From Azonexus sp. (GTDB taxonomy: Bacteria > Pseudomonadota > Gammaproteobacteria > Burkholderiales > Rhodocyclaceae): a stretch of DNA of 64,000 bases. A program made the translations under genes and the position numbers. Shown in pieces: positions 1 through 37,064 of this stretch. The stretch spans positions 46,472 through 110,471 of the forward strand of contig NZ_JAVBXX010000003.1 in assembly GCF_030824335.1 (NCBI RefSeq), in the 5' to 3' direction. The notes beneath the pieces were generated by a model, which worked only from the letters and a program-made list of their open reading frames with translations, did not search any database and was not told the origin of the DNA. Every line of letters starts with the position of its first letter. The first letter of the stretch is position 1.

Positions 1-3000
1 CGACCCCCTCGCCGCGCGCATAGCCGTTGGCCGTCGCGGCAAAAGGCTTGCAACGACCATCCGGCGCCAGCATCCCGGCCTTGTTGAAGCCAACAAAGGC
101 TTCCGGCAAAAGCAGGGCATTGACGCCCCCCGCAATGGCAGCATCGCAATGACCACTGTGAATCGCCTCGACCGCCCGATGGATGGCAACCAGCGCACTT
201 GAGCAAGCCGTTTCCACGGCCAGGCTTGGACCATGGAAATTGAAATGAAAGCTGATCCGGTTGGGGCCAAGCGAAGGCGCCAGGCCGGTCATCGAATAGC
301 CCTCGACCCCCTGCCCGGCTGCAGCAGACAGACGGCCATAGCCGGTGTCGGCAATACCGATGAAAACGCCGGTACGCGAGCCGTACAGGCTGCGCGGCGC
401 ATGCCCGGCGCGCTCAAGCAGATGCCAGGCTTCGCTCAGCAATAACCGCTGCTGCGGGTCCATGGCCCGTGCTTCCGGCCCGGACAGTCCGAAGAAAGCG
501 GGATCGAACGCCGCCATGCCATCGATGAAACCGCCCCACTTGATCTGGGTCCGGTTCGGCTGTGTGGCCGGATCGCCCCACCATGCCTGCCAATCCCAGC
601 GCTCGGCGGGAATCTCGCTGATGCAATCGCGCCCGGCTTCAAGATTCGCCCAGAAAGCTTCCGGATCATCGGCCTTGGGAAAACGCGTCGTCAGGCTGAC
701 GATGGCGATGGGCTCCTGCCCTCGTCGCTGTTCCGCACCTTTGGCCCCCTCCTTACGCTCCCCTGTGGCTCGATACTGTTCCCCCACGTGCAGACTCGTT
801 GCCACTCGGGCCACAGCGGGCTCAACTTGCCATGGCATGATCGGCGCAACCAGTGCTTGTCCCTGCGAGGTCTCAGCCTGCGGTGACGGTGCAGCGGGGA
901 GAATACCCAGACGGCTGGCTAGCGCATCGCCATGCCCTTGAGCCAGGCCGTCGGCGAGTTGACCGAGGGTCGGATACTCGAAAAACAGTGTCGGGGTGAT
1001 TTCCAGGCCAAATTGGTCGTTGACCGCATTAGCGAACTGGGTGAAGCCAATCGAATCGAAACCGTACTCAGCCAGTTCGACATCGGCGTCGAGATCGACC
1101 TGGGCGACCTTGAGCAAACGACTGGCACAGTGCGTAAGGGCGGCCAGCAAGGGCGCGCGCAATGCTTCGGTGGAGACGGATGCCAGTCGGCCAATTGCCG
1201 ATACCGGAATACTGGCGGAAGCAGCGGCAGTATCAGAAGCAGGCAGCCCCTCCGGCTGATTTAACAAGGCAATCCGGCGCTGTAAACGGGTCTCGTCACC
1301 GGCCATCACCAGCAGGCGAACCGGCTGATCAGTCGTTGTGACGGAGAGCACGGCGGCCAGGGCATTCAGGGCGGCAGCGGAGGACAAAGGCGTCAGCCCC
1401 GTGGTTTGCCGCATCAAACGCAGCATTTCCGGCGCCATGTTCATCCCGCCGTCCTGCCACAACGGCCAGGCGATGGCTAGCGTACGTCCCTGGCACACCC
1501 CCTGAATCCTGCGCTGTTCGCGGCGCTCGGCGAAATCGTCGAGGAAAGCATTGGCTGCGGCATAATCGGCCTGACCCGGATTGCCGAAAACACCAGCCAG
1601 AGAACTGAACAAGACAAGAAAATCCAGTTCACGGTCGCCCAACGCACGATCCAGATGGATGGTCCCGCTCACCTTGGGCGCCAGAACCCGGGCCATGCTC
1701 GCCAGATCTTTCTCGGCCAGTGCCTGATCGGCGCAGAGACCGGCACAGTGAAAAACGCCATGCAGACGCCCGCAAGTCTGATGAATCGCCTCGATCAAGC
1801 CTTGCACCGCCAGCGCATCAGCCATATCCACCGCACGATAGCTGACCGCCGCCCCGTTCGCCTGCAGGTCGGCCAGCCAGTCACCACCCGGCTGAGGCGA
1901 ACGTCCCGTCAGAACAATGTTGGCAGCGGGTGCCTGGGCGAGGATGTCGCACACCAGCAAACGCCCGATGGCGCCAGCGCCGCCGGTAATCAGATAAACG
2001 CCATCAGCGCGCCATGAACGGGGAACCGTCTCGCTCTCGCTCAGATTGCGCAGAGTTTTCCAGTGAGTCTGCCACTGAACTGGCTGCAGGCCGGCCGATG
2101 TCTGACGCACGAGCGCTTGCTCGGGAATCGCACTGGCGGCATGCAGCGCCGGCAGCAACTCGCCATCGTCAACCACAACGACCTGGCCGCACAACCGGGG
2201 ATATTCGAGCCGGGCGGTTTTCAGGAGTCCGGACAAGCCGACTAAAGACGCCGCGGCAGGCCCGTCCAGAACAAGTTGCAAAAAGACCGGAAGCGCTGGT
2301 CGCACAGCCTCGCCAAGCAAAGCCTGCACGTGGTGCAACATTAGTCCGGCAGCCAGGGAAAAATCATCGGCCGAACCACTCGTCACGCCATCGAGAATCA
2401 CGCACTCATGGCCCGGCAAAGCTGCCACCAGGGCATTCAGCCGCTGTGCCGAAGCACCGGCCAGAAGTACCAGACGACGAGCAAAGGACGGCACGGTGAG
2501 GTTTTCTGCGACACCAGGCCTGACACTCGGCTGGGCAATTGGCGTCCAGGTCGCGGCAAACAGCAGATTAGCGGCGGCCGGCGCAGCATCAGACGGCGCC
2601 AGCAGGCGGGTACAAAAACCACTCAGGCTGACCCGCAGATTCCCCGACGCATCGAGCAGGTCAAGATCAAGCGTGCGCACAGTGCTGCTTTCCGCTGCCT
2701 CACCAGCGCGAACGCGAACCCACATCCGGGAAGTACAGGGAGCATGGATTTCAACCCGGTCAAGGGCAAACGGCAGGGCTGTTTTCTGGCTATCCCCTGC
2801 CTTTTCCTTGTCTCCCAGCGCCATGCCGATGGTGGCCTGGAAGGCCGCATCAAGCAGACTTGGGTGCAGGACGAATGCCGGCAAGTCGGCCAGCAAGCCA
2901 TCCGGCAACGACAACTCACCCAGCACCTGCGGCCGCCCTTGAGCATCACGGCCCAAGGCCAGTGAATGTAGCGCCCGGTGGGCCGGGCCGTAATCGATAC

Positions 3001-5878
3001 CGATGGCGGCGAAGGCACGATAAACCTCATCCTGCCCCAGCACTTGCGGATGAGCGGCGCGCAAATCCGCCAAGCTGAGCGCTGGCGCCTTGTCCATCGC
3101 TTCTGATTCGGCCGTCGACGCCGAAACAGACTCGCGGGCGGCCAAGCGGGCCTGGGCATGGACTTGCCGCTGCCCGGCGGCATCGCGACTGGCAATTTCG
3201 ACCCGTGGCCAACCGCTGGCATCGACGCTCAGTCCGATATCCAGGGTCAACGGCGCCGTCACCCGTAGAGGCTGTTGCCAGATCAACTGGCGAATGCAGA
3301 AATTTTTCAATCCACGGGCCTCGGCCACACGCTGGACGATTTCAAGGTAGGCCACACCAGGCAGGACCGGCACGCCATGCACACGATGATCAGCCAGGAA
3401 AAACTCCTGCCCTGTCAAATCCAGGCTGAAACCGCCGTCGTCCCGCGCGCGCGGCGTCAAGCCGCTCTGCCGGATGAGCGGTTCAGCAGCCGGCAACCAG
3501 TAGCGCTGACGCTGGAAGGGATAGGTTGGCAGGGCAAGACGGCGTGGTGTCTCACTTCCCCAGGCCGCCGCCCAATCGACTTGGGCACCACTCACCCAGC
3601 GTGCCGCCAGTTCATTGACTGGCAGCTTGGCTGGGACGATCAGTTCGCGACCGGCGACATTGTCCCGGGGCACCTGGCCAACACACCAGGCCCCCGCCTC
3701 CCCGCGCAAAAACGCGGCCAGGCCATCAGCCAACCCGGCACCGTCACCGGCTGTGCAGGCCAGGCGGTAGCGCATGGCATCGCGCCCGATCTGCAGGGTA
3801 TACGCCAGACCGGCAAACAGTTCAGCCGACAAGGGTGGCCGGGCGGTCAGCCAGGCGTGCAACGCCTCGGCAGCCGCACGCAGCGCAGTCTCGCTCCGGG
3901 CCGACAGCGGCAGCACGACGGCACCGGCAAGCCGTGGTGCCGGACGCGCCGGAGTCTGGTATTCCTCAAGCACCAGATGGGCGTTGGCCCCACCCGCACC
4001 GAAGGAACTGATGGCCGCCCGCCGAGGCTGTTCGCAGCCATCAATCACCGGACGCTGCCAGGCTTGTCCGGTACTGGCCAGTTGAAACGGACTACCCGCC
4101 AGTTCGAGCAAGGGATTGGGATCGGCACAATGCAGGCTGCGGTAGCAAAGGCCATCTTGCATGGCCAGGACGAGCTTGATCAACCCGGCCACCCCGGCGG
4201 CCGTTTCGGTATGGCCGATGTTGGATTTCACCGAACCGAGCACGCAATGCGGCGCACCGGGGGGCGGCAAGCCACGCTCCCGATAGAGTTCGGCAAAAGC
4301 GGTTTTCAGCCCCGCCAGTTCGATCGGGTCGCCGAGCCGGGTGCCGGTGCCATGACATTCGATCTGGGTCACGCTGCGCGGATCGATTGCGGCCTGACGA
4401 TGCGCTTCGACGATCAGTCGGGCCTGCGCGGCGGGATTCGGTGCGGTCAGCGAACTGGCTGCGCCGCCGTGATTTTCGGCCGATCCCCGGATCACTGCCA
4501 GGATCTGATCGCCATCGCGTTCGGCCAGATCCAGACGTTTGAGCAGGACAGCCCCCACGCCCTCACTCCGAGCATAACCATTGGCAGCGGCAGAAAAGGT
4601 CTTGCAACGGCCATCCGGACTGAGCATGCCGACCTTGGCGAACATCAAATGCTGGGTCGGCGAAAGCATCAGGTTGGCACCACCGGCGATGGCCATCTCG
4701 CAGCCTTCGTGGCGGATACTCATGATCGCCCGGTGTACGGCAACCAGCGAACTGGAACAGGCCGTATCGATGACCTCGCTTGGTCCCTGAACATCAAGCA
4801 GGAAGGACAGTCGATTGGGGCAGAAAACATGGCCCAGCCCGGTCATCTGCATGGCTTCCATCAGCCCTTGGGCATTGGCCAGTCCGACGTAGTCGAGCAG
4901 GTTGATTCCCAGGAAGATGCCAAGCTTTCGACCTGCCAGCGCAGTCGGTGCATAACCGGCACTTTCGACAAGCTGCCAGACGCACTCGATGAACAGCCGA
5001 TGCTGAGGGTCCATCAACTCGGCTTCCTTCGGCGAAATATTGAAGAAGCCTGCATCAAACTGGTCATGACCGTCGACAAAGCCGCCGTATTTCACATTGC
5101 AGAAAGCCCCCTTGTTCGGATCGCCCCAAATGGACCGCCAGTCCCAGCGTTCCGGCGGAATTTCAACGATGCAGTCATCGCCCTGTTGCAGATGGCGGCG
5201 AAAGGCTTCGAGGTCAGGACTACCGGGAAATTTCCCGGCCATGCCGATGATGGCTACCGGCTCGGCCGGCCCCGGCAGGGGTGGCGCTGAAGCCACCGGG
5301 GCCGTTGGGCTCAAGGCCGCAGCCGCCGGCTTGACCCGGCGGACACCGTATCCGGCCAGCCAGCCGTCAATCGCCGGCGCCTGGCTAGCTGCCTTCGCCA
5401 CAGCAAGGCTGGCCTGCGCCGCGGTACGTGGGGCGGCGACGGGCTTAACGGGCTCCGCCGACCCGGCGTAATGCCGGGCGATGGCGGCACCATGCCGAGT
5501 GCGCAGGATGGTGCACAGCTCATCCAGATGCTTGGCTTCGAAAAACGTCGTGGGGGCAATGGAAACGCCAAGAAAGCGCGAGATCTGGGCCATCAGCTCT
5601 GTGATGGCAATCGAGTCGGCACCGTAGTTGGCCAGATTTTCCCCGGTATCAAAACGCTCGGCTGGCACGCCCAAGGCACGCAAGGCAAGGCGCGTGACGT
5701 CATCTTCCAGACGACGATCCAGCGACGCGGCGCCGGGCGCCTCGGTTGGCGGTGGATTTGCCGCATTTTTGGCGGTCGACCGCTGAACCCGGGCCAAACC
5801 GAGCAACTCCTGCTCAAGCAGATTGCGCATGCCATCGCGCAAGCCTGAAGCCTCTCCCGCCTTGTTATCAGCACCCAT
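1..5878 (-). CDS. trans-AT PKS subunit 2, 3'-truncated by window edge; domains ACP(~5500-5720)-KS(~3960-5263)-DH(~2540-3440)-KR(~1400-2500)-ACP(~930-1150)-KS(1-715, partial)
   Basis: Not in the ORF track, presumably because no stop is reached in the window. Hand translation from ATG 5878 gives ACP YGADSIAITELM, KS EPVAIIG..DTACSSS..ECHGTGT..SNIGH, DH DHRVHGVPVLPG and LHPSLLDAAFQ, KR LITGGAGAIG..GNPGQADYAAAN, ACP YGFDSIGF, and a second KS EPIAIVS..ETACSSA. No AT domain. No listed minus-strand ORF uses this frame, consistent with one open frame. Confidence 0.95.
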   Translation of the reverse strand, partial: MGADNKAGEASGLRDGMRNLLEQELLGLARVQRSTAKNAANPPPTEAPGAASLDRRLEDDVTRLALRALGVPAERFDTGENLANYGADSIAITELMAQISRFLGVSIAPTTFFEAKHLDELCTILRTRHGAAIARHYAGSAEPVKPVAAPRTAAQASLAVAKAASQAPAIDGWLAGYGVRRVKPAAAALSPTAPVASAPPLPGPAEPVAIIGMAGKFPGSPDLEAFRRHLQQGDDCIVEIPPERWDWRSIWGDPNKGAFCNVKYGGFVDGHDQFDAGFFNISPKEAELMDPQHRLFIECVWQLVESAGYAPTALAGRKLGIFLGINLLDYVGLANAQGLMEAMQMTGLGHVFCPNRLSFLLDVQGPSEVIDTACSSSLVAVHRAIMSIRHEGCEMAIAGGANLMLSPTQHLMFAKVGMLSPDGRCKTFSAAANGYARSEGVGAVLLKRLDLAERDGDQILAVIRGSAENHGGAASSLTAPNPAAQARLIVEAHRQAAIDPRSVTQIECHGTGTRLGDPIELAGLKTAFAELYRERGLPPPGAPHCVLGSVKSNIGHTETAAGVAGLIKLVLAMQDGLCYRSLHCADPNPLLELAGSPFQLASTGQAWQRPVIDGCEQPRRAAISSFGAGGANAHLVLEEYQTPARPAPRLAGAVVLPLSARSETALRAAAEALHAWLTARPPLSAELFAGLAYTLQIGRDAMRYRLACTAGDGAGLADGLAAFLRGEAGAWCVGQVPRDNVAGRELIVPAKLPVNELAARWVSGAQVDWAAAWGSETPRRLALPTYPFQRQRYWLPAAEPLIRQSGLTPRARDDGGFSLDLTGQEFFLADHRVHGVPVLPGVAYLEIVQRVAEARGLKNFCIRQLIWQQPLRVTAPLTLDIGLSVDASGWPRVEIASRDAAGQRQVHAQARLAARESVSASTAESEAMDKAPALSLADLRAAHPQVLGQDEVYRAFAAIGIDYGPAHRALHSLALGRDAQGRPQVLGELSLPDGLLADLPAFVLHPSLLDAAFQATIGMALGDKEKAGDSQKTALPFALDRVEIHAPCTSRMWVRVRAGEAAESSTVRTLDLDLLDASGNLRVSLSGFCTRLLAPSDAAPAAANLLFAATWTPIAQPSVRPGVAENLTVPSFARRLVLLAGASAQRLNALVAALPGHECVILDGVTSGSADDFSLAAGLMLHHVQALLGEAVRPALPVFLQLVLDGPAAASLVGLSGLLKTARLEYPRLCGQVVVVDDGELLPALHAASAIPEQALVRQTSAGLQPVQWQTHWKTLRNLSESETVPRSWRADGVYLITGGAGAIGRLLVCDILAQAPAANIVLTGRSPQPGGDWLADLQANGAAVSYRAVDMADALAVQGLIEAIHQTCGRLHGVFHCAGLCADQALAEKDLASMARVLAPKVSGTIHLDRALGDRELDFLVLFSSLAGVFGNPGQADYAAANAFLDDFAERREQRRIQGVCQGRTLAIAWPLWQDGGMNMAPEMLRLMRQTTGLTPLSSAAALNALAAVLSVTTTDQPVRLLVMAGDETRLQRRIALLNQPEGLPASDTAAASASIPVSAIGRLASVSTEALRAPLLAALTHCASRLLKVAQVDLDADVELAEYGFDSIGFTQFANAVNDQFGLEITPTLFFEYPTLGQLADGLAQGHGDALASRLGILPAAPSPQAETSQGQALVAPIMPWQVEPAVARVATSLHVGEQYRATGERKEGAKGAEQRRGQEPIAIVSLTTRFPKADDPEAFWANLEAGRDCISEIPAERWDWQAWWGDPATQPNRTQIKWGGFIDGMAAFDPAFFGLSGPEARAMDPQQRLLLSEAWHLLERAGHAPRSLYGSRTGVFIGIADTGYGRLSAAAGQGVEGYSMTGLAPSLGPNRISFHFNFHGPSLAVETACSSALVAIHRAVEAIHSGHCDAAIAGGVNALLLPEAFVGFNKAGMLAPDGRCKPFAATANGYARGEGV

Positions 5879-5905
5879 CACCGTACCCCGCCTTTATACA
5901 AACGA

Positions 5906-7225
5906 CTACTGTTCCAACATGTTTCGATATTTGCGCATCTCGGCCAGCAACTTCCAGAGATCTGCTTCCCACTGGTGGCGATAGGATTTAACGAAATACG
6001 CCTGGCCAAGATCCGGCTGATCGTGGCACTTGGCTTCGAGAAATGCCTGTAACCCAACGGTGCGTCCGGCCAATGCGCGCGCATAACTGCGCACGAAAGC
6101 GCCCTGGGTCTTCAGACCATCGCCCAGCCCGCCAGCTGCATTGATGAAGCCCATGAACAGCAAGTTATCGTGATTGCGCGGCACCGCGTGCAGAAACAGA
6201 TCCGGAATGCCCGAACGCCAATCGAGCAACGCCGGGTCGAGGAAGGACAAATCACGCTCGTAACCGGTCGCGTAGAGCACCAGATCGAACTCGGCTGAAC
6301 TGCCATCCTGGAAGATCACCTGCTGACCGGCAAAACGACTGACATCCCCCTTGGGTACGATATCGCCGTGGCCGATGTAATACAGCAATTGGGAATTCAT
6401 CACCGGATGCGCCCCATCCAGCGGATAGTCAGGCTGCGGCAAGCCGTAGTCGGTACCGTCGTAGCCGGCCAGCTTGAAGACCTGCTCGATGTAAGCCAGC
6501 GTATCTTCCTTGCTGCCGAAACGACTACCCAGTTCCATCATCCACTGGGGCGTCGCCTTGCCGGCGATGAATTTTGGCTGATAGTAGTAGCCCCGCCGGG
6601 TACTGTGACAAACCGCGCTGGCGTGATGCACCGCATCGACGGCCAGGTCGCAACCCGTATTGCCCCCCCCGATCACCAGCACCCGCTTGCCGCGCAATTG
6701 ATCCGGCGACTTGTAATCGACCGCGTGCAGGACTTCCCCGGCAAACTGCCCGCCGTAGGGCTGCTCCGGATAATGCGGTTTGTTCTGCAGGCCATTGCAA
6801 ACTACCACCAGGGGGTAGTGGGCGCTGCTGTTGCCTCCTTCACTGCGCCAATGCAAGCGCCAGCCGTCGCCATCAGGCACCAGGCGATCAATCCGGGTAT
6901 TGAAACGGGCATGCTCGTAGACGCCGAAGGTCCGGGCATAGTTGCGGATGTAATCCAGCATTTGCCGATGATTGGGATAGACCGGGAAGTCCTCGGGCAT
7001 CGGGAAGTCCTGGACCTGTGTATTGAACTTGGGCGATATCAGGTGCAACGAAGGATAGGTTCGGCCACAGGCGGCCGTCCCGTGCCAGACACCGCCAAAA
7101 TCGTCGGCGGCTTCGTAGAGATCAAAATCGATGCCGCCATCGGCCAGTTCCCGGGCGATGCCAATACCCGTTGGGCCGCCGCCGATGATGGCGACCTTGA
7201 AACCTGCATTTGAATCCATTGTCAT
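5906..7225 (-). CDS. Flavin-dependent monooxygenase, PedG/OocK-like oxygen-inserting (Baeyer-Villiger) type
   Basis: Two Rossmann motifs (IIGGGPTG, VIGGGNTG), FMO fingerprint FAGEVLHAVDYK (FxGxxxHxxxYK), and the segment YPSLHLISPKFNTQ that I recall from trans-AT PKS-associated monooxygenases. Lies between two PKS genes; its ATG overlaps the upstream PKS stop (TAATG). Confidence 0.88.
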   Translation of the reverse strand: MTMDSNAGFKVAIIGGGPTGIGIARELADGGIDFDLYEAADDFGGVWHGTAACGRTYPSLHLISPKFNTQVQDFPMPEDFPVYPNHRQMLDYIRNYARTFGVYEHARFNTRIDRLVPDGDGWRLHWRSEGGNSSAHYPLVVVCNGLQNKPHYPEQPYGGQFAGEVLHAVDYKSPDQLRGKRVLVIGGGNTGCDLAVDAVHHASAVCHSTRRGYYYQPKFIAGKATPQWMMELGSRFGSKEDTLAYIEQVFKLAGYDGTDYGLPQPDYPLDGAHPVMNSQLLYYIGHGDIVPKGDVSRFAGQQVIFQDGSSAEFDLVLYATGYERDLSFLDPALLDWRSGIPDLFLHAVPRNHDNLLFMGFINAAGGLGDGLKTQGAFVRSYARALAGRTVGLQAFLEAKCHDQPDLGQAYFVKSYRHQWEADLWKLLAEMRKYRNMLEQ

Positions 7226-10200
7226 TATCCTGCCTCCCCTTCGAAATGCAATTCGGCCAGCGCGTCAAGTTGCTCGCTCACCACCCCTTCCAGGCACAGG
7301 CAAGGTTTGCCTGCCTGATCGATCAACAGCACGGTCAGTGCCGGGCTATGTGCCACCGGTTGCCAGACCCGGATCGTTCCCTCATCCGGCACACCGCCAT
7401 CAAAGCGCAGGGACGCCACGGCCAGCGGGAAACGCGGCCCCGGCAGACCGGCTTGTTGCTCGAAGAAGGCAATGAGCTGCCACACCGCATCGAGCGCCAA
7501 GGGATCAAATGCCATCGTGGCATCGCCAGGCGGCCGGCTCCACTCTGCCTGCAACCCCTCGCCTGACCGAGCCACGGCGAGAATACCGCGCGCCGCCGGC
7601 CGTGCCAGGCGGAAATCGGCCAACGCATCCAATAACGGCGCGTCAGCCGGCAGCGTCGGCCAGGTATCAGCCATATCGTCAGCCCAGAGCAACTCACCAA
7701 CCTGACAGGCCAGGTTTTCATCGCCCTCAACAGCAATGCGGTAATTCGCCACCGCCTCCGTCAGTTGAACGGTCACCGCCAATTCGTATGGCCTGGCCGC
7801 GATCGACAGCGGCCGCCCCCAAACCAGATGACGCAAACCGCGCACCGTCCGCTTATCTGCCAGTTCGCCAGCAGCCCGCGCCAGTTCGGGATAGAACAAG
7901 CCCGACAGCAGCTTGTCACCGCCAACGCGCTGCAGGCTCAAGCAGGCTTCGTCGCCACGCAGGGTGCACCGGAAATAGACATCGCCGGCTGCGCCGCGCA
8001 CGACAAGAGAAGGCTTCGTTGCCCGACTACTGTCGGGTGCCGCATCAAGCGGTTTAAGCCAGTGTCGTTCCGCGGCAAACGGATAGCCCGGCAGGCGTAA
8101 ACGACGACGCCCGACTGTACCGGCCAGTTGTCGCCAGTCAATGACAGCCCCCTGTAACCAAACCTCGGCCAGGCGTTCAAGACGACCGGCAGCCAGCCAT
8201 TTCCCAAGCAACGCCTGGACATCGCCATCGTCGTCGAAAAGCAGGCGTGCGCCTTGGCTGTTGCCACTCGTCAACAGGCCTGCAACTGACTGACCGGCAG
8301 CCAGTGCGCGCAACTGGCCGAGTAGCTCAGCACGGCTGGAGAACAGGCTGGCGGCCCGGCACTCGAACGCCCGACGGCCACGTTGCAAGGTCCAGCACAG
8401 GTCGGCCAGATTCAATTCGGGTTGCGCTTCGAGAGCACCGAGCAACCCAGCAGCCAAAGCGGCCAGTTGGGCGCGGCTGCGGGCAGAAAGAAGACAAAGC
8501 AACGGTCCGGGCGCTGCCGCCCCGCTCGTCGCTGGCGCTACCGGCCGGTACTCCTCCAGAACGAGGTGGGCATTGGTGCCGCTGAAGCCAAACGCACTGA
8601 CCGCCGCCCGCCGTGGCACGCCAGCCATTGCTGGCCAGGGCGCGCGCACGGTCTGAACGTGGAACGGTGACCCGGCCAAGGCCAGATGTTCGTTCTGGCG
8701 TTCGAAATGAATGCTCGGCGGCAATTCGCCATGTTCAAGTGCCAGCATGGCCTTGATCGCCCCGGCCACGCCGGCCGCCGCCAGCAAGTGGCCGACATTG
8801 CTCTTCACCGAGCCGATGGCCACCGACATTCCCGCGTCGAACGGGCCGAAACCGGCACGCAGCCCCTCGATTTCGATCGGATCACCCAATGGGGTGCCGG
8901 TACCGTGGGTTTCGATCAGGCCAATGCTGGCCGGCGCAATCGCGAAACGGCGATAGACCTGGCTGAGCAGTGCCCCCTGGGCCAGTGGATTGGGCGCAGT
9001 AATGCCGTTGGTGTGACCATCCTGATTGCTGCCCCAACCCCGGATAACGGCCCGGATCGGGTCGCCATCGCGCTCGGCATCGGCCAGGCGTTTGAGCAGC
9101 ACGACCCCGACCCCTTCGCCCGGCACAAAGCCGTTGGCGCGCTGATCGAAACTGTAGCAACGGCCATCCGGCGAGAGCATGCCAACCTTGCTGGTATCGA
9201 TGTGCATGCGCGGCCCGAGCAGGACACACGCCCCACCAGCCAGCGCCAGATCGGTATTGCCGAGGAGCAAACTGTCGCAGGCCTGAGCGATAGCGACCAG
9301 GGAAGTCGAGCAGGCCGTATCGAGCGCCACGCAGGGGCCGCGCAGATCAAGCAGATAAGCAATGCGTGCGGCGAGAATGGAGCCCGCACTACCGATCAGG
9401 CTGTAAGCGTTGGTCTCATGGATCAACTCGCCATAACCGCTATTGCCGCTACCGACGAAAACCCCGCAGCGACTGCCAGCAAGGTCGGCCGGATCAATCG
9501 CCGCATCTTCGATGGCCTGCCATGCGTGTTGCAGAAAGAGGCGTTGCTGGGGATCCATCAATTCCGCCTCGCGGGCGGTGATATTGAAGAATGGCGCGTC
9601 AAACAGATCGATATCGTCAATGACCCCCATCCACTTGCTGTACGACTTGCCCGGCACTTGGGGATCGGGGTCGTAATAGGCCGCAACATCCCAACGACTG
9701 AGAGGAACCTCGTCGATACAGTCGCGGCCATCACGAATATTGCTCCAGAAGGCAGCAAGATCGGCGGCCTTGGGAAAACGGCCAGCGGCACCGATGATGG
9801 CAATCGGCTCGATTGCCGCGGACCTGGTGCCGGATTTAGTGCTGAATTCGGCCCCGGATTCACCCCTGGATTCAGCCATGCTCCGAACAGCGCAGAGCGA
9901 TGGCGGAGATGAGCGAGGCAAGACCGGCAACACAGGCTCGTGCGTCACCGGTGGCCGAACCTCCGGCGCAGCAGTTGGCCCGGTGAGCGCTGCCGGAGCA
10001 GTGGGTAGCAAACGCAGCACTTCCTGCAACAAGGCCCCTACCGTGGGCTGGGCATAAACGCAGGTCGCCGGCAAGGTGATGTCCAAACGGGCGTTCAGCT
10101 TGCGAATCCAGGTCACCGCCAGGATGGAATCCAGGCCGAGTTCGAGGAAACCGGCACTATCGTCGATATCTTCTGCCGCCATCAGCAACTCTTCGGCCAG

Positions 10201-28479: not shown

Positions 28480-30786
28480 TTAGCCTTGTGGAATCTGCAT
28501 CATGGCAAAACGCTGAACCAGCAAGGCGGCTGTTTTATCCATCAGGTGCCTGGCCAGTTCATCTACGTGTCGAGCGCGCCAAGGCGCCAGTTCGCTCCCC
28601 TGCACCGCCTGGTTGAATGCACCAAGTGCAGGACCGCAATGAATCTGAAAATCCAGTTTATGCGCGCTTTCGCCACGCAATGCCCAGCGACTTGCGTCCT
28701 TGAAATAACGCCCGAAAATCAGCGCCATCCGATGTTTCGGACTGCGCGCCGCACGCTCCAGGTCTGCGGCCGGACAGCTTGTTTGCAACTCGGCAAAAAC
28801 CTCGTCCAGGCTACGCTGGAAGTATCGTTCCTCGAGTTGCTGACGGGTCTTGGCATCCAGCTCGTCAATCGACTCGTGTTGTCGGTAAAGGCTGGCCAAC
28901 TTGTTAGCCCGGTTCGGGAAAAAGATCCCTTTTTTCAGAACCTGCACTCGCGAACCCATTTCGAACTGCAGACCAGAAGGCGCGTAATCGGTGTCGTAAA
29001 CCTGCATTTCCTGCAACAAATCCTTGACCAGATCGCTGGTTCCCGCTTCGACCGTACATTGGTTGATCGAACCAGTCATGATGAAATCGGCCCCCATCAC
29101 GAAAGCAGCCGCGGCAGCCTCGGGCGTTCCAATACCACCGGCAGCCCCGACATAAAGCGGGTGCGCTGGATAGCGGCGCAGCATCTCGTCACGCACACCC
29201 AAGGCCGCCGGAATCAAGGTAAAAGGCATGCGCTGGTCAGTATGCCCACCCGAGTCAGCTTCCATGCACAGGGCATCGGCCATCGGTATGTCAGCCAACA
29301 GTAACGCTTCTTCTTCGTTCAGCCCGCCACTGGCCAGCAACTTGTCAATCAGGCGCTGCGGTGCAGGAGAAAAGAACTGCGCCCCCACATCGGGTCGGGA
29401 AACCTTGGCGACAATTCGATTCCGCACCTCAACCCGCCCGTCCGGACGACGTAACAACCCCTTCGCACGATAACGGACCAATGCTGGCGTCACCTCGACA
29501 AAAGCAGAAGCCTCAATGGTCCTCACGCCGTGAACAAGCAGCAGGTCAACCAGTTGATCCTCAAGTTCGGGGCGATGAATGTGCGCAATAAAATTGACAC
29601 CATAGGGAGCCCCTGACGGAATAGCCTGCTGGATACGGACGATGCTGTTCTCTATCGTCTCCATATCCAGCCCCCCTGCGCCAAAGAAAGCCATTAGCCC
29701 AGCCTTGGCCAGACGCACCACCATATCCACCGAAGAAATGCCCTGGTACATGCCACCGGCGAGGTAAGCGTATTTGAGATTGAAGGTCGCGCGAAATGCA
29801 GCAGAACCAAGAGAAGCCGCACCAAAATGCAGGGGAGTGACGTTCGACACGACCGGAAGCGGATTGATCTGCTGTTGGCTGGCGCTATCGGTCAACGCCT
29901 CCTCGGCCAAAATGCTGGCATCAAGCGGGCCAGCCTCAGTCTGGGTACGCATGACCATCGGCTTCACCACGCTGATCCCCGGCGGACCAATTTCATCAAA
30001 ATCACCGACTGCCAGACCCTTGGCCAGAAGGTAGCGCAGGCTTTCAGCCCAGCGCACCGGTGCCGTGATCTGCTCGATCATGCGCTCCCGGATCAAGCCT
30101 GGAAGGTGTGGGCGCGCCGTGACGTTCGAAATAACCGGAATGGTCGGCGCAGCAAAATGCACTTGCTGGGCGAATTCGCCAAAGGCATCGCGGGCATCCG
30201 CCATAAAAGGTGTATGGAAGGCACCACTGACTTGCAACAGCTTGAAGTACGTCGCCCCGGCTTCCATAAACAGCGACTCGGTCTGAGCAACCGCCTCCCG
30301 GCGCCCGGACAGTACAATCTGCAAAGGCGTATTGAAATTGGCGGCATGGACATCGCTCAACCCGTGTTTGACCAATACCGCTTGAATCTTTTCTTCATCA
30401 AGCCCAAGCACCGCTGCCATGCCGCCGCCATGCGCCTGCCCCATCAACTCGCCGCGCTTTTGCACAAGGCGCAGCCCGGTTTCAAAATCCAGCACCCCTG
30501 CGGCAAACAGTGCAACGTACTCGGCAACGCTATGACCAAGCAGGAAATCCGGTAAAGGTGCATTTTGAATACGCTGCAGGTAAGCAAGACTGTTGACCAC
30601 ATATAGTGCCGGCTGCGTAAATTGAGTCTGGGTAAGTCGCTCCAAGGGCCCGGCCAGGCAAAGTTCGGCAACCGAATAACCAAGGATGCCCTCTGCCTGA
30701 CGCAACAAGTCCGGGAAGGCTGCAAACAAGTCCTTACCCATGCCAATACGCTGCGCCCCCTGGCCGGGAAACATAAAAGCTTTCAT
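28480..30786 (-). CDS. trans-acting malonyl acyltransferase fused to FMN-dependent enoylreductase (AT-ER, PksE/PedB-like)
   Basis: MKAFMFPGQGAQ start with GGAGG RBS; ATG 30786 overlaps the upstream TGA, so the track start at 30822 is probably too long. AT motifs GHSVAEY and SGAFHT; PfaD-like ER motifs AGGMYQGI, EADSGGHTD, GAAGGIGTP, TGSINQCTVEAG. Confidence 0.93.
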   Translation of the reverse strand: MKAFMFPGQGAQRIGMGKDLFAAFPDLLRQAEGILGYSVAELCLAGPLERLTQTQFTQPALYVVNSLAYLQRIQNAPLPDFLLGHSVAEYVALFAAGVLDFETGLRLVQKRGELMGQAHGGGMAAVLGLDEEKIQAVLVKHGLSDVHAANFNTPLQIVLSGRREAVAQTESLFMEAGATYFKLLQVSGAFHTPFMADARDAFGEFAQQVHFAAPTIPVISNVTARPHLPGLIRERMIEQITAPVRWAESLRYLLAKGLAVGDFDEIGPPGISVVKPMVMRTQTEAGPLDASILAEEALTDSASQQQINPLPVVSNVTPLHFGAASLGSAAFRATFNLKYAYLAGGMYQGISSVDMVVRLAKAGLMAFFGAGGLDMETIENSIVRIQQAIPSGAPYGVNFIAHIHRPELEDQLVDLLLVHGVRTIEASAFVEVTPALVRYRAKGLLRRPDGRVEVRNRIVAKVSRPDVGAQFFSPAPQRLIDKLLASGGLNEEEALLLADIPMADALCMEADSGGHTDQRMPFTLIPAALGVRDEMLRRYPAHPLYVGAAGGIGTPEAAAAAFVMGADFIMTGSINQCTVEAGTSDLVKDLLQEMQVYDTDYAPSGLQFEMGSRVQVLKKGIFFPNRANKLASLYRQHESIDELDAKTRQQLEERYFQRSLDEVFAELQTSCPAADLERAARSPKHRMALIFGRYFKDASRWALRGESAHKLDFQIHCGPALGAFNQAVQGSELAPWRARHVDELARHLMDKTAALLVQRFAMMQIPQG

Positions 30787-32438
30787 GGCGTCGCCTCCAG
30801 TTCCTTCCCTTTTTTCTCCCATTCCACACCCCCCAGATCCAGCTTGATCACACGATCAGCCACATGCCAGAAACGGTCATCATGGGTCACGGCAATGACA
30901 GTTTTACCCTTTGCTTTCAAATCCGGCAGGATCCGGTTATAAAAATGCTGACGGAAGTGAAAATCCTGCTCAGCGGACCACTCATCAAATATGTAGATCG
31001 GACGATCTTCAAGTAGTGCAGCGATCAGAGCCAGGCGTTTTCGTTGCCCGGTTGACAGGTGAAGTTCGGAAAAACGTCCATCAACGTAACGCAGCTTGCT
31101 ACTCAAGCCCATCTCCCGAATCAGGCGATTGACCTCCTCCGGATCTCTGCCCTCTTGCCCGTAAAGTCTGTCGAACAAATGAAAATCGGCAAAAATTGCT
31201 GAAAACAGTTCGCGAAAACCTGGCACCTCATTTTTCGCCAAAACCTCCCCGTCTATCTCAATCTGACCACTCTCCACGGGATAAAGACCTGTAATCAAAC
31301 GCAGAGTTGTCGATTTGCCACTGCCATTGCCACCTACCAGAAAAATCAACTCACCGCGTTCTACTTCAAGATTCAACGGTCCCAAACTGAATTCTGCATC
31401 CCCCGATTTGGCACGATAGTTGAATACCAGATTTCGGTAGCCGATACGTTGAAAATCCCGATAAGGTTCCGCGAGCGCCCGAGCGGTCGCAGGGTCGACG
31501 CCAGGAGCCGCATCCAATTGCTGCTCCAGTGAAATAATCGACCTCAGTCCCACTTCAGCACGCACAAACATCGGTGAATGCGCCACGATCAGCGTCAGCG
31601 GCACAATACAAAACATCAGGGTGGCCACCAACTGAAAGACGATGGTGCTATGCGCCGGGACGTAAAGAGGGAAGATAAACCCGACAATCCCAAGCATTGA
31701 ATACACCATGAGCACGCTAAGCAGAACCATGGAAACCCAGTATTCACCAGCACCAACCATCAAACGATGCCCGGTCCGGGATAGATCTTCATAATCAGCG
31801 AAAACAGCTTCGCTGCGCCGGGTATTCAGTATTAACTCCTTCGAACCATCGATGATGTCCGAAATGGAGTCCAGCATCTTGCCTTGGCAGCGGCCCAACT
31901 CTGCGAGAGTCGTGCGAAAACGCGTATTGATGTTCAGGTAACCAACAATCCCCAACACGACGACCACAACAAAGACAATCAATGCCGGCACCGACAGATA
32001 AGCCAGATAAACAAGCGAAACGGCAAGCAGGATTGCCTGCTGAAAGCTATTGATCAATAAGGGAAATGTAACGGAAAGATGGTTGGTTTCCTGAGAAACC
32101 ATGGCATACAACTCCCCTCGCCCGACATCATCGAGGGTTTGCAATTCGGTCCGCCTGAGTTTGGCCGCCACATTGACCCTCAGGTCACGCAACAAGCCTT
32201 CGATAATCCGGTTGGCAAGGAGTAAGGCGCGGTTGTCGCACAAATAATACAAAACAAAAGCCATGACGAAGGCCAGCCAGTGCCAAATATCGGGCCGCTC
32301 CGCTTCGGCCACCAGTTCGGCCACCAGATTGACCATAACCACCAGAAGCGCGTTGGCGATTCCGGCAACCGAAGTCAGCAACAGCATCCGCCCCAAATCC
32401 GGCGGATTGGCCCGTTTGATAAAATCGAACAGGATCAT
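30783..32438 (-). CDS. Cyclic peptide export-type ABC transporter (SyrD/PvdE/YojI family), TMD-NBD
   Basis: Multiple TM segments, Walker A GGNGSGKST, signature LSTGQRKRL, FDEWSAEQD, VTHDDRFW. Confidence 0.9.
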   Translation of the reverse strand: MILFDFIKRANPPDLGRMLLLTSVAGIANALLVVMVNLVAELVAEAERPDIWHWLAFVMAFVLYYLCDNRALLLANRIIEGLLRDLRVNVAAKLRRTELQTLDDVGRGELYAMVSQETNHLSVTFPLLINSFQQAILLAVSLVYLAYLSVPALIVFVVVVVLGIVGYLNINTRFRTTLAELGRCQGKMLDSISDIIDGSKELILNTRRSEAVFADYEDLSRTGHRLMVGAGEYWVSMVLLSVLMVYSMLGIVGFIFPLYVPAHSTIVFQLVATLMFCIVPLTLIVAHSPMFVRAEVGLRSIISLEQQLDAAPGVDPATARALAEPYRDFQRIGYRNLVFNYRAKSGDAEFSLGPLNLEVERGELIFLVGGNGSGKSTTLRLITGLYPVESGQIEIDGEVLAKNEVPGFRELFSAIFADFHLFDRLYGQEGRDPEEVNRLIREMGLSSKLRYVDGRFSELHLSTGQRKRLALIAALLEDRPIYIFDEWSAEQDFHFRQHFYNRILPDLKAKGKTVIAVTHDDRFWHVADRVIKLDLGGVEWEKKGKELEATP

Positions 32439-34063
32439 GGCAATCCACTCCCATCCGGCACAACGACCTGCCCCAGATCCAGAGTCACGATCCGATCAGC
32501 AAGATGCCAGAAACGATCATCATGACTGACCACGACGACCGTCTTGCCAGCCTGTTTGAGCTCAGCCAGAATTTCCGTGTAAAAAACAGTGCGGAAATGA
32601 GCATCCTGATCGGCAGCCCACTCATCGAAAATATAAATTTCCCGTTCTTCGAGTAAGGCGACGACCATGGCCAAGCGCTTGCGTTGACCGGAAGAAAGAT
32701 TCTGAGTGGAAAAACGGCCATCGACATAAAACACCTTGTCCGACAGTTCCATCCGCTCAATCAACTGACTCACCTGGGCCACATCGACATGTTCCAATCC
32801 GTGGAGACGCTCGAACAAGTGGAAATCCGGGAATATGCAAGAAAAGAGTTCGCGATACTCCTGCACGGCATCCTTGGTAAGCACCTCCCCATCAACGCGT
32901 ACGTACCCAACATCCGGCGAATAAAGTGCTGAAATCAGCTTGAGGGCAGTAGATTTACCACTGCCGTTACCGCCCAGCAAAAACAACACTTCGCCACGCG
33001 ACAAGGCCAAATCCCAAGGACCAATACTGAACGTACTTGCACCCGATTCGTCGCGATAGGAAAACCCGATATTTTCAAAGGCAATACGCTCAAAGCCGCT
33101 GAAGCGGGATTCACTCGGCAAGCTATCGGACACTCGGGCGGCGCTGCCTCGATCCAGTGTCTGCTCCAGACTGAAAACATGCCCAAGCCCAATACTGGCC
33201 CGAGTAAACAGTGGTGCGGCTGAAGTAATTGCGGAAACTGGACCAACACAAAAAATGCCCACCGCAGCGATCTTGTAAATTACGTCGGTATAACCGTCAA
33301 AAAATCCCGGCAAGACAAAAATCACGACACCCAGCAAGCCATAGAGAAAAGCATTGCTGAACAACAACAAAACCACCCATTTCCCCCCTATCCCGACAAT
33401 CAAGGACTGCAGATCGTCAACAATCTGCACATAGCGGGCAAACAAGGCATCATTTTTATCAGAATTCAGGCGAATTTCCTGAAACCCTTCCGTGAAATGC
33501 GACAACGAGTCCAGCATTTCACTTTCCTGCGCATGAACGGAAATCATGGCTTTGTTAAGCGCCTTGCGTCTTGTGTAAAAAAACGCCATGGCCAGCAGCG
33601 CGACGCCACAAACCACCAAAAACGACACAAGGGACAAGGTGGCAATATAAAAAAGGCAAAAAACCAACAGGAACAAGCTTTGAGCAGCCCCGACCAACAA
33701 AGGGACATTTTGCGCAAGATGATTAGTTTCCTGAGCGACGACAGCATACAAACGACCGCGCCCAAGAGACTCCAGCGTGCGCAATTCAGCATGACGGATC
33801 TTGTCGGCAAGACGCAAGCGCAACTCGCCCAGGCGCGATTGGAGAAAATCATTCGCGCGACGCAACGATGTCTGGTTAGCCAGAACGTAGATGGCAAAAG
33901 CGAGGATATATAACGCCAGCAACCGAATACTAATCGGCTGAGCAAGCGCCGTCTGTTCCGCTGCGGTGTTTACCAAGCCGATCAAAACCGCATTGGCCAG
34001 CCCGGCCAGACAGGTAACATAGAATGCTCCCATCCTCCCCCCCGGCTTACCCATCTGAAACAA
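32435..34063 (-). CDS. Cyclic peptide export-type ABC transporter (SyrD/PvdE/YojI family), TMD-NBD
   Basis: Walker A GGNGSGKST, LSSGQRKRL, FDEWAADQD. Start uncertain: the frame is open to ~34117 and a GAGG precedes an in-frame CTG at 34081 (MKNLWRLFQMG...). Confidence 0.9.
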   Translation of the reverse strand: MFQMGKPGGRMGAFYVTCLAGLANAVLIGLVNTAAEQTALAQPISIRLLALYILAFAIYVLANQTSLRRANDFLQSRLGELRLRLADKIRHAELRTLESLGRGRLYAVVAQETNHLAQNVPLLVGAAQSLFLLVFCLFYIATLSLVSFLVVCGVALLAMAFFYTRRKALNKAMISVHAQESEMLDSLSHFTEGFQEIRLNSDKNDALFARYVQIVDDLQSLIVGIGGKWVVLLLFSNAFLYGLLGVVIFVLPGFFDGYTDVIYKIAAVGIFCVGPVSAITSAAPLFTRASIGLGHVFSLEQTLDRGSAARVSDSLPSESRFSGFERIAFENIGFSYRDESGASTFSIGPWDLALSRGEVLFLLGGNGSGKSTALKLISALYSPDVGYVRVDGEVLTKDAVQEYRELFSCIFPDFHLFERLHGLEHVDVAQVSQLIERMELSDKVFYVDGRFSTQNLSSGQRKRLAMVVALLEEREIYIFDEWAADQDAHFRTVFYTEILAELKQAGKTVVVVSHDDRFWHLADRIVTLDLGQVVVPDGSGLP

Positions 34064-34162
34064 ACGCCAAAGGTTCTTCAGTTGAATGCCCTCAACATAA
34101 AAACACCTGTGAAGAAATCATTTACATCCTCACCATGAGTCAAATTTTATGCAAAAGTATAA

Positions 34163-34936
34163 ATGACTTGGCCACAGACTCAGCAAGAACTTCAAATGCG
34201 CGTACCCCAATTGCATCAACATGAATGCCATCTCTGGCACATTTCCTTGTGCACACCGGATATGGCGCACTCCTTGCCAACGGAATGCTTGTCGGACGAG
34301 GAAAAAACCCGCGCAGCAAAATTTCTTCGCCCGGAGGCCCGACAACAATTTGTCATGACTCGTCACGCCCTACGCTCGCTTTTAGGCGCTTACCTGAACA
34401 CAACTCCGGAAAAAATACCGCTCCAGGCCAATCAATTCGGCAAACCATCCCTTCCCGTATCATTTGCTTCCCTGTACTTCAACGTAACTCACTCCGGCCA
34501 GCGGGGACTGATCGCCATCACCAGACAAGGCGAGGTGGGTGTCGATATTGAGCAGCAGCGCAAGATGAAAGACCTTCTGGGAATGGCCAGCATGATTTTT
34601 TGCCCGGAAGACCTGCGGGTATGGCAGGAGTTGCCAGTAGCAGAACAAATGCCTGCTTTCTACCGCGCATGGACAGGCAAGGAAGCAATGGCCAAGGCTT
34701 TGGGTTGTGGCCTGACAATTGACCTGAAAGGACTTCGTGTCGACTTTACGCATGAAGCACAGACACAATTCCTGGAAATGGATTTTCCCCCTGGGACAAT
34801 ACATCACTGGCATCTGGCACAACGCAATGTCGTACCAGGCTATTGCGCAGCACTGGCAATCAGAGGAAGCCCCCTCGAAACAATCGATTTAGCATTTGAC
34901 ACACAGCCTGTTCGAACTCCCGGAAATGCTGCTTGA
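34163..34936 (+). CDS. Sfp-type 4'-phosphopantetheinyl transferase
   Basis: Motifs FGKP, FNVTHSG, VGVDIE, WTGKEAMAKALG; divergent from the PKS operon. Confidence 0.93.
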   Translation: MTWPQTQQELQMRVPQLHQHECHLWHISLCTPDMAHSLPTECLSDEEKTRAAKFLRPEARQQFVMTRHALRSLLGAYLNTTPEKIPLQANQFGKPSLPVSFASLYFNVTHSGQRGLIAITRQGEVGVDIEQQRKMKDLLGMASMIFCPEDLRVWQELPVAEQMPAFYRAWTGKEAMAKALGCGLTIDLKGLRVDFTHEAQTQFLEMDFPPGTIHHWHLAQRNVVPGYCAALAIRGSPLETIDLAFDTQPVRTPGNAA

Positions 34937-35096
34937 GCAAACGCAAGCAAGGCAGACATCCCAGATAACTCAAGGACTTGCGTCCTGAGATCCGTTGTCA
35001 TCAGGCTGTGTATAATAATGAAAATTTCATTGCGTGCCTGATCACTCGCGCCACCTCAGTCGACCAACCGAATCAAGGGCTGATTCTTAGGAAAAA

Positions 35097-35648
35097 TTGT
35101 ACAACTCGATGAAAATCAATCTCTTGTGCACCATGAATCTCCTGTTACGGATGTCGATTTCGACTTGCCTGATGTTGGTCAGCAATGCTTTCGCACAAGT
35201 CGATTCGCACAAATCGGTCATCGACAAATACAGCAAAGAGTTGATCAGGCAGCGAGACAAAGGCCCTATTTTTGTTTCAGTCCCTGTAGCCTACGTCTTT
35301 GGCATGGGTGGCGAGCGTAGCCCACTCTATTGTTCACCATCTGTTCGGGCGGCAAATGGATCAAATAAAGTAATCGAAGAACTGATCGTCGGCATCACCT
35401 ATCGTTCGGCAGCCGGCTCATCTGCGGGCTCCAGTGTTTCGCGCTTTACCAACATCAAGGTAAAACGGATCGAGTCGCATTTTTTCAACCAGCTTGAAAC
35501 TTCGAAATGTTCCGGGTTGACCGGAGAATTAAATGTCGTTCGATGTGTTTACACAACTGGCGAAGATTGCTCGGACGATATTCAAGCAATTAACTTCGGT
35601 GCCATCCCGTTGCAATCACGAACAAAACATTCAGGGGAAAAACCATGA
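35097..35648 (+). CDS. Hypothetical exported protein with several cysteines
   Basis: Signal-peptide-like N-terminus ending SNAFA-Q; four Cys in the mature part; stop overlaps the next ATG; AGGA upstream of TTG 35097. Exact start uncertain. Confidence 0.7.
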   Translation: MYNSMKINLLCTMNLLLRMSISTCLMLVSNAFAQVDSHKSVIDKYSKELIRQRDKGPIFVSVPVAYVFGMGGERSPLYCSPSVRAANGSNKVIEELIVGITYRSAAGSSAGSSVSRFTNIKVKRIESHFFNQLETSKCSGLTGELNVVRCVYTTGEDCSDDIQAINFGAIPLQSRTKHSGEKP

Positions 35649-35857
35649 CTCTGGTCATTTACTTATCACTCTGCGTCATGGTGGCCTTGCTTGGCCGCAA
35701 AACAAAACTCGGATTTTTCCGGGGCTTTTTGTTTTGCGTCATGCTTACGCCGTTTGCAATGATGTTTTACCTGCTGATTTTCACGACACTTGACCCGGAA
35801 GAAGACGCGCGCAGCCAGGTAAAGGTCAAGAATCCAACCATAAAGTTTGACGACTGA
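35645..35857 (+). CDS. Small membrane protein (70 aa, two hydrophobic segments)
   Basis: ATGA overlap with the upstream gene, GGGGA RBS, hydrophobic stretches LVIYLSLCVMVALLG and GFLFCVMLTPFAMMFYLLIF. Confidence 0.7.
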   Translation: MTLVIYLSLCVMVALLGRKTKLGFFRGFLFCVMLTPFAMMFYLLIFTTLDPEEDARSQVKVKNPTIKFDD

Positions 35858-36004
35858 TGCAACGATCGGACAATGAGTTGACGGTGTTTTTCCTGGAAAC
35901 GATGCTCACAGGGGCGACTTTTACTATCCAGCGAAATCATCTGGAAGGACAGCATCGCCATATGATTTCTGGGTCTATGCCAGCACTACTGGAGGCAAAC
36001 CGAA

Positions 36005-37042: not shown

Positions 37043-37064
37043 CCCTGCAGACTCTGGCGAGACA

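Follow-up and report, generated by a model that had tools for sequence, protein, structure and literature searches.

A 64,000-nt stretch of genomic DNA of Azonexus sp. (contig NZ_JAVBXX010000003.1, positions 46,472 to 110,471; hereafter the window) contains a flavin monooxygenase (FMO) gene placed between two polyketide synthase (PKS) genes. These three co-oriented, tightly linked genes very probably encode, split among them, module 6 of a sesbanimide-type (sbn) trans-acyltransferase (trans-AT) PKS, in which the FMO would insert an oxygen atom into the growing chain by Baeyer–Villiger (BV) oxidation. The original prediction, made from the letters of the DNA, had proposed a split oxygen-insertion module with a ketosynthase (KS) and an inactive dehydratase (DH0) on the first PKS subunit, a BV monooxygenase and then, on the second PKS subunit, an acyl carrier protein (ACP). 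Orthology of the FMO to SbnP, the synteny of 37 out of 39 loci and published work all support this proposal. The anatomy of the module, the states of its active sites and its orthology to SbnO, SbnP and SbnQ come from the present analysis; the BV chemistry and the colinear ester are taken from published work, and we infer by analogy that the window FMO carries out the same BV chemistry as the OocK and SbnP systems. A BV module made of a KS with a pseudo-DH lacking His, an FMO and an ACP has already been published for oocydin, pederin and sesbanimide, and the window holds a further copy of it.

Organization of the split module

Domains were assigned throughout the 64-kb window with Pfam searches, a list of open reading frames (ORFs) and their translations. 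The following elements, all on the minus strand, make up the module and its immediate surroundings:

7225–28476, minus strand: sbnO-like trans-AT PKS gene, 7083 aa (ORF list and Pfam)
about 8701–9810, minus strand: KS6, the elongating KS of the split module (ketoacyl-synt, E 9e-90; Ketoacyl-synt_C, E 2.6e-39)
8059–8682, minus strand: KS-flanking linker, ending in LPGYPFAAERHW (KAsynt_C_assoc, CurL-like_PKS_C, RhiE-like_linker)
7228–8058, minus strand: DH0, a DH-like double-hotdog domain with a short acidic C-terminal tail (Pfam, alignment, profile against PDB)
7223–7227, minus strand: TAATG stop/start overlap of sbnO and the FMO gene (sequence)
5906–7225, minus strand: sbnP-like class B flavin monooxygenase gene, 439 aa (FMO-like, E 1.5e-50)
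5879–5905, minus strand: spacer of 27 nt from the FMO stop to the sbnQ start
3–5878, minus strand: 5′ part of the sbnQ-like PKS gene, which runs off the window (translation and Pfam)
5786–5845, minus strand: N-terminal amphipathic helix of SbnQ (GLRDGMRNLLEQELLGLARV), which may serve in docking (conservation among orthologues)
5504–5707, minus strand: ACP6, the carrier of the split module, boundaries approximate (GADSI, Ser codon 5612–5614; PP-binding)
4127–5266, minus strand: KS7, the first KS of SbnQ (Pfam; Cys/His/His present)

Pfam searches revealed that the SbnO-like PKS is built of KS-DH-ketoreductase (KR)-ACP, KS-(B)-ACP, KS-KR-ACP, KS-methyltransferase (MT)-ACP, KS-ECH-ACP-ACP and KS-DH0 units, its last 1500 residues comprising the ECH, two ACPs, the KS, the KS-flanking linker and the DH-like domain. 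The catalytic triad of KS6 is intact, with Cys in DTACSTS (residue 6389) and His in HGTGT (residue 6524) and NVGH (residue 6563). Since all three residues are present, KS6 is elongation-competent, as had been claimed for the KS at the end of the first subunit. The TAATG sequence at 7223–7227 agrees with the suggestion that the monooxygenase is translationally coupled to this subunit; an overlap of 1 or 4 nt is found at the sbnO/FMO junction in nearly all orthologous loci. The next junction differs from that of most alphaproteobacterial orthologues, in which sbnP and sbnQ share an ATGA overlap instead of being separated by the 27-nt spacer. A scan of both gene junctions (sbnO/FMO and FMO/sbnQ) found no terminator-like sites.

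The SbnQ-like product starts with approximately 55 residues that include a helix, followed by an ACP and then by KS-DH-KR-ACP-KS. The GADSI motif confirms that the second PKS subunit begins with an ACP, and two PP-binding stretches were detected in this subunit. ACP6 is 50–84% identical to the orthologous ACPs. A helix pattern LR..M..LL.QEL precedes ACP6 in every orthologue, the fused ones described below included, and an Ala/Pro-rich spacer separates the helix from the ACP. At the other side of the junction, the end of SbnO (7228–7269, minus strand) is a short tail in which one hydrophobic position is conserved and acidic residues occur (...I/L...EE..). The acidic tail of SbnO and the N-terminal helix of SbnQ could form a docking pair, and the helix appears to be a better candidate than DH0 for the SbnQ side of the putative contact between subunits.

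The module as a whole thus consists of KS, linker and DH0, followed by an ACP directly before KS7, and Pfam detects no KR, enoylreductase (ER) or active DH in it. With these activities missing, the ACP-bound substrate is expected to be a β-ketothioester.

The monooxygenase belongs to the SbnP clade

The FMO contains the motifs GGGPTG, FAGEVLHAVDYK, GGGNTG and ATGY. It carries two Rossmann motifs of the GxGxxG type and an FxGxxxHxxxY(K) motif, the features by which class B flavin monooxygenases are recognized. Hundreds of close relatives are present in a large protein collection, the best 120 being 63–85% identical to the window FMO. In a survey of genomes, with one genome taken per species, 36 loci encode an FMO relative at least 65% identical (range 65–85%), and all of them are syntenic orthologues. 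Of the 39 related loci whose flanks could be read, 37 show the order KS-linker-DH-like domain, FMO, ACP-KS. KS7 shares 67–86% identity with the KS encoded next after the FMO in every orthologous or pederin-like locus.

Identity of the window FMO is 73% with its counterpart at the sbnP position in Roseibium aggregatum PHM038, a producer for which both sesbanimides and the sbn cluster have been described (74% for KS6 and 76% for KS7 of the same locus), 82% with that of Azovibrio restrictus and 84–85% with its closest relatives, which come from Rhodocyclaceae-type betaproteobacterial metagenome-assembled genomes (MAGs). Orthologous loci were also found in Magnetospirillum sp. 64-120, Rhodobium orientis, Magnetovibrio blakemorei, Azorhizobium doebereinerae, Oceaniovalibus and Stappia sp. 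BW2; sbn-like clusters in these genomes, and in A. restrictus, are listed by Kacar et al. (bioRxiv 10.1101/2020.09.18.303172).

In a neighbor-joining tree, constructed without bootstrap, the window FMO falls into a Rhodocyclaceae-type subclade inside the SbnP clade. Next outward are FMOs of pederin-like PKSs from Azospirillum and Methylobacter (63–65% identity), further out PKS-linked FMOs of the Methylorubrum extorquens AM1 megaplasmid (44%) and of an Azospirillum plasmid (46%), and outermost FMOs of non-PKS context (28–40%). The expected kinship with PKS oxygenases of the BV type was therefore recovered in the tree in part, as a position inside the SbnP clade with pederin-like PKS FMOs as sister group; the connection to OocK and PedG is drawn from the literature (bioRxiv 10.1101/2020.09.18.303172).

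The closest solved structures are generic FMOs (8z12–8z17, E 1e-63), followed by ancestral mammalian FMOs (E 1e-43). An oxygenase chain associated with the mupirocin PKS (8odw), which we take to be the α-hydroxylation component of that system, is a distant match (E 1e-29). Clustering of the FMO with α-hydroxylases or epoxidases, named beforehand as the outcome that would speak against BV activity, was not seen, the enzyme lying inside the SbnP clade.

It is very improbable that the FMO is some other on-line tailoring oxygenase (an α-hydroxylase, an epoxidase or an N/S-oxygenase) located between PKS genes by chance. FxGxxxHxxxY(K) is a general FMO signature and not that of type I BV monooxygenases, the best solved relatives are generic FMOs, and the source annotations of the homologues read ‘trimethylamine monooxygenase’ or ‘CzcO’. 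However, all 36 homologues at least 65% identical occupy the same split PKS module, whose lack of a KR places a β-keto substrate at hand, and the esters made by orthologous clusters are colinear with the module (PMC8262917; bioRxiv 10.1101/2020.09.18.303172). OocK, assigned by the literature to the same clade, is also FMO-like and performs BV oxidation (PMC6174933, PMC7586987). α-Hydroxylation and epoxidation were rejected on these grounds, namely synteny, colinear esters and the clade of OocK, together with the remoteness of 8odw.

Comparison with known oxygen-inserting systems

Gene and domain order are the same in the window and in the sesbanimide clusters of Stappia indica PHM037, Roseibium (Labrenzia) aggregatum PHM038 and Magnetospirillum gryphiswaldense MSR-1: ECH-ACP-ACP-KS-DH without HxxxGxxxxP, then the FMO, then ACP-KS-DH-KR-ACP-KS. 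The likeness extends to the six KSs of SbnO with its MT module and a second module read, on a weak match of the B domain, as KS-(B)-ACP, to the stop/start coupling of sbnO and sbnP, and to the adjoining genes of the trans-AT, the phosphopantetheinyl transferase (PPTase) and the ABC transporters. Absence of HxxxGxxxxP from the C-terminal DH of SbnO was reported by Kacar et al., who also found the ester of sesbanimide F colinear with the split SbnO/SbnP/SbnQ module (bioRxiv 10.1101/2020.09.18.303172); for sesbanimides F and R alike, the ester is colinear with this module (bioRxiv 10.1101/2020.09.18.303172; PMC8262917). Unlike the known producers, the host of the window cluster is an uncultured betaproteobacterium, with its closest relatives of the Rhodocyclaceae/Azovibrio type (FMO identity 82–85%). 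Besides the spacer before sbnQ, the window differs in having Gln at the catalytic column of DH0, where PHM038 and many alphaproteobacterial orthologues have His, and in an AT gene that carries an ER-like (NMO) domain.

The oocydin genes oocJ, oocK and oocL of Serratia plymuthica 4Rx13 resemble the window, to judge from the published description, in a KS with a His-less pseudo-DH, a free-standing, FAD-dependent FMO encoded between PKS genes and a carrier protein; the assembly line and its product are different. The OocK module has been described as KS, pseudo-DH without His and ACP (PMC6174933). Meoded et al. showed that OocK converts β-ketothioesters to malonyl esters in vitro (PMC6174933), which is the demonstrated case of the oxygen insertion stated earlier for enzymes of the PedG/OocK type.

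With pederin (PedF/PedG/PedH) and the pederin-like orphan clusters of Azospirillum and Methylobacter the window shares the block of FMO followed by ACP-KS. In two pederin-like loci (L056 and L057) the FMO is 63–65% identical to that of the window, KS7 is 69% identical (L056), and a DH-like domain follows the last upstream KS. In contrast, the upstream module is KR-ACP-KS and its KS is only 47–48% identical to KS6, which indicates a different chain; in pederin the ester is, moreover, cleaved to a terminal alcohol. L057 (positions 5810–8139 of a Methylobacter metagenome contig) consists of a KS-DH-like end, a 190-nt gap and the FMO, followed by a Y1 transposase and unrelated genes in place of the usual downstream ACP-KS PKS, and may be a naturally truncated assembly line.

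A more distant case is M. extorquens AM1 (locus L058; NC_012811.1, 2050–15313), probably the toblerol (TobD) locus, an assignment that goes by the organism and not by an accession. Its FMO, 44% identical to that of the window, also lies between a PKS that ends in a KS and one that starts with an ACP, but no DH-like domain is present: the upstream PKS ends in a helical tail 68 residues after the linker motif LPGYVF. The genes do not overlap, being 52 nt apart, and the downstream PKS has an N-terminal helix followed by ACP-hydrolase-aminotransferase-FMO2, the second FMO being distant (31% identity). Another type of PKS-linked FMO, 46% identical to that of the window, is encoded on plasmid AbAZ39_p3 of Azospirillum argentinense (L059; NZ_CP007796.1, 31045–46274). 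This FMO gene directly precedes a large PKS gene whose product starts with a helix, an ACP and a KS; on its other side are not a KS-DH0 terminus but genes for a free-standing ACP, an ECH, an LnmK-type acyltransferase/decarboxylase and another hydroxylase.

Finally, LbmC-Ox of the lobatamide pathway is, like the enzyme predicted here, a flavin monooxygenase acting on an ACP-bound β-keto intermediate during elongation (PMC7586987). It differs in being integrated into the PKS, in belonging to another oxygenase clade (clade II) and in yielding a reversed ester with a glycolyl-type product (PMC7586987).

Fold and active-site state of DH0

Pfam matches the two halves of DH0 weakly (PKS_DH_N, E 7e-8; PS-DH, E 3.4e-4, the latter below the cut-off). 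When 35 orthologous DH0 copies were combined into a profile, this profile matched the trans-AT DH structures 5j6o and 5hst along its full length at approximately E 1e-22, and by this comparison DH0 is a genuine, full-length double-hotdog DH fold. Membership in the fold was taken from the search of the profile against PDB, a single-sequence AlphaFold2 model being unusable (mean pLDDT 35, pTM 0.22).

For comparison with DHs whose motifs are complete, DH0 was aligned with the two such domains in the window, DH1 of SbnO and DH1 of SbnQ. In the HxxxGxxxxP motif His is replaced by Gln (codon 7930–7932) and Pro by Ser; GYxYGPxF is gone; the Asp (codon 7489–7491) and Gln of DxxxQ are kept. This matches the earlier description of a DH that has lost the catalytic His and retained the Asp. 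With His replaced and GYxYGPxF lost, DH0 would not qualify as an active PKS dehydratase. Among 36 DH0 orthologues the catalytic column is His in 17, where the Gly and Pro of the motif are missing. The His-bearing copies are mostly alphaproteobacterial, with Asp alongside, and include that of the sesbanimide producer PHM038, while the betaproteobacterial group to which the window belongs has lost this His altogether. The Asp of DxxxQ is conserved in 25 of 36 orthologues only, and its retention is therefore not family-defining. The only invariant residues are R69, W88 and L197 (numbering of A1), structural positions common to ordinary DHs.

Proposed course of oxygen insertion

The following sequence of events is proposed. 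KS6 would condense malonyl-ACP6 with the exomethylene-bearing chain that the tandem ACPs of module 5 deliver. As a KR is missing from the module and its only DH, DH0, is Gln-substituted and inactive, the intermediate should remain a β-ketoacyl thioester. The free-standing FMO, using FAD, NAD(P)H and O2, would then carry out a BV oxidation that places oxygen between C-β and C-γ and leaves a malonyl ester still bound to ACP6. This ester would be accepted by KS7 of SbnQ, and elongation would go on. The expected outcome is an internal ester as in sesbanimides F and R, which could later be hydrolyzed to short sesbanimides. In this scheme DH0 would most plausibly serve as an adaptor, keeping the FMO and/or the arriving N-terminus of SbnQ beside KS6.

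Several observations weigh against assigning the region to a sesbanimide-type BV module. The organism is known solely from an uncultured metagenome. The match of the branching (B) domain of SbnO to RhiE_B is weak (E 4.4e-4, 20.6 bits against a cut-off of 27) and lies below the Pfam cut-off. The glutarimide-loading pair of amidotransferase and ACP and the HMGS β-branching cassette were not found in the window, and may lie beyond sbnQ. The placement of the FMO relative to OocK, PedG and TobD is indirect, coming from the literature and from the probable AM1 TobD (44% identity).

Conservation and loss of DH0

Median identities of orthologues to the window are 72% for KS6, 71% for the FMO, 62% for ACP6 and 73% for KS7, 43% for both the KS linker and the active DH of SbnQ, and 31% for DH0. 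Compared in this way, DH0 appears as the least conserved and fastest-evolving domain of the block. Ratios of nonsynonymous to synonymous substitution (dN/dS) were determined for pairs of close orthologues with unsaturated synonymous sites (dS 0.3–0.45). Values for DH0 are 0.15–0.45 overall, 0.15–0.19 in Roseibium and Stappia pairs and 0.42–0.44 in the Magnetospirillum group, compared to 0.14–0.28 for the active SbnQ DH and 0.04–0.15 for KS and FMO. These ratios, far below 1, point to purifying selection on DH0 much like that on the active SbnQ DH. DH0 is full-length and free of frameshifts in 37 of the 39 loci, which come from Alpha- and Betaproteobacteria and one Myxococcota MAG.

Two Hyphomicrobium MAGs (L020 and L023, positions 1–7266 of each) lack the whole of DH0 through a precise deletion; the FMO there follows in frame, fused approximately 25 residues past the LPGYPF..W end of the linker, and the KS and FMO motifs are intact. 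In a third Hyphomicrobium (L022), DH0 is still present and the FMO has a gene of its own. An assembly artefact was considered and rejected: the two MAGs come from different studies, their catalytic motifs are intact, and the DNA of the two fusion junctions is only 78% identical, so the KS-linker-FMO architecture is inherited. When the Hyphomicrobium junction was used to search a set of 5.8 billion proteins for further fused forms, the best 120 matches were all free-standing FMOs of 371–460 aa; either the linker-FMO fusion is rare, or giant proteins escape retrieval by a word index. As the literature describes clade I oxygenases as trans-acting, the fused form, a DH0-less KS-linker-FMO followed by an ACP, is perhaps undescribed. 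Absence of DH0 from this pair and from the AM1 locus means that oxygen insertion is not intrinsically dependent on DH0. Where it is missing, the FMO is covalently tethered (Hyphomicrobium) or terminal helices are present (AM1).

Together these comparisons suggest that what keeps DH0 in place is not catalysis. A role in docking or as an adaptor is a possibility, though somewhat short of an even one; the comparative data are compatible with a non-catalytic adaptor and point to no particular partner. In a more specific version, which we advance tentatively, DH0 would be a selected adaptor that places the FMO and/or the helix-ACP of SbnQ at KS6 and that has been replaced at least twice, by the fusion in Hyphomicrobium and by helical tails in AM1. 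If this is true, a rule follows for transplanting oxygen-insertion modules: DH0 should be kept together with its own FMO, or the FMO should be fused after LPGYPF..W.

DH0 may instead be a mere leftover of a former KS-DH-...-ACP module, an explanation that is likewise possible without being probable, the FMO reaching its substrate through diffusion or by contacting KS6, ACP6 or the SbnQ helix. The same facts that weigh against an adaptor fit such a relic: DH0 is the least conserved domain, with 31% median identity against 71–73% for KS6, FMO and KS7; two Hyphomicrobium lineages have deleted it cleanly while retaining every KS and FMO catalytic motif; and it is absent from the KS/FMO/ACP locus of AM1. 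Degenerate and variable catalytic motifs and the relaxation of dN/dS to approximately 0.44 in the Magnetospirillum group are also what a relic would show. A relic, however, would hardly be expected to persist full-length without frameshifts in 37 of 39 loci across these phyla, nor to have a dN/dS of 0.15–0.25 in most close pairs, which is the level of the active DH and the KS linker. Its loss, furthermore, coincides with fusion of the FMO or with helical tails, and so resembles compensation.

It is improbable that DH0 retains a cryptic catalytic or substrate-handling function, either presenting the β-ketoacyl chain to the FMO or supporting an isomerization or ester step based on Asp (with His). 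His30 and Asp194 were noted in the DH-like domain by Kacar et al. (bioRxiv 10.1101/2020.09.18.303172), the Asp, present in the window DH0, is shared by 25 of 36 orthologues, the catalytic-column His occurs in 17 of 36, and the domain shows signs of purifying selection. Yet in the window DH0 this column is Gln with no His close by, His and Asp both vary among the orthologues while the invariant residues are structural, DH0 is dispensable in fused and AM1-type modules, and the structures of the sesbanimides are explained without dehydration or isomerization.

Context of the cluster

The six KSs, MT, ECH and tandem ACPs of the SbnO-like protein follow the order of SbnO, the B domain being the weakly matching element, and the orthologues of SbnP and SbnQ are encoded directly downstream, SbnQ partly inside the window. 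Upstream of sbnO the window encodes an AT-ER protein, a pair of ABC transporters, a PPTase, a Band7 protein and a thioesterase, with housekeeping genes beyond them. A complete sesbanimide pathway is likely, even though its loading pair and HMGS cassette were not found in the window.

The trans-AT gene (28480–30822, minus strand) encodes an AT, an NMO-type enoylreductase-like domain and a FabD helical-insert segment. For the saturated part of sesbanimide F, Kacar et al. postulated an enoylreductase acting in trans, a role that the NMO-type domain could fill. A region of lower GC content (49–53% at 30000–38000, compared to approximately 62% for the PKS genes) covers the two ABC transporter genes, the PPTase gene (plus strand), the Band7/SPFH gene (plus strand) and the thioesterase gene, which suggests a mosaic origin of the accessory part of the cluster. 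The cluster boundary is at approximately 38 kb. The remaining part of the window (38065–64000) contains housekeeping genes, among them those for a 2965-aa GH94 cyclic-glucan-synthase-like protein, and a squalene/phytoene synthase with an amine oxidase (together a hopanoid-type pair). A Pat-like acyl-CoA-synthetase/GNAT protein and a LysR regulator are also encoded there, as is a sulfate/thiosulfate ABC transporter that has two binding proteins.

Occurrence and implications

The exact sequence of positions 4800–9000 of the window is present in a freshwater sediment metagenome, and 26–68% of its 31-mers were found in wastewater, groundwater and soil runs, which contain close variants. Wastewater RNA-seq data contain a few contigs of 150–256 nt that agree with the FMO gene at 99% or above, including one across the FMO/sbnQ junction; being too thin for a claim of expression, they are at most a hint of transcription.

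By these comparisons, the question of what the pseudo-DH does can be reduced to a deletion/fusion experiment. For engineers who wish to install in-chain oxygen in a PKS, the useful point is that DH0 appears to be selected and is nevertheless naturally replaceable by a KS-linker-FMO fusion. The window adds one orphan sesbanimide-type cluster to those known, in a betaproteobacterial host widespread in metagenomes of freshwater sediment, wastewater and groundwater, and an ester-containing glutarimide polyketide is predicted for this uncultured host.

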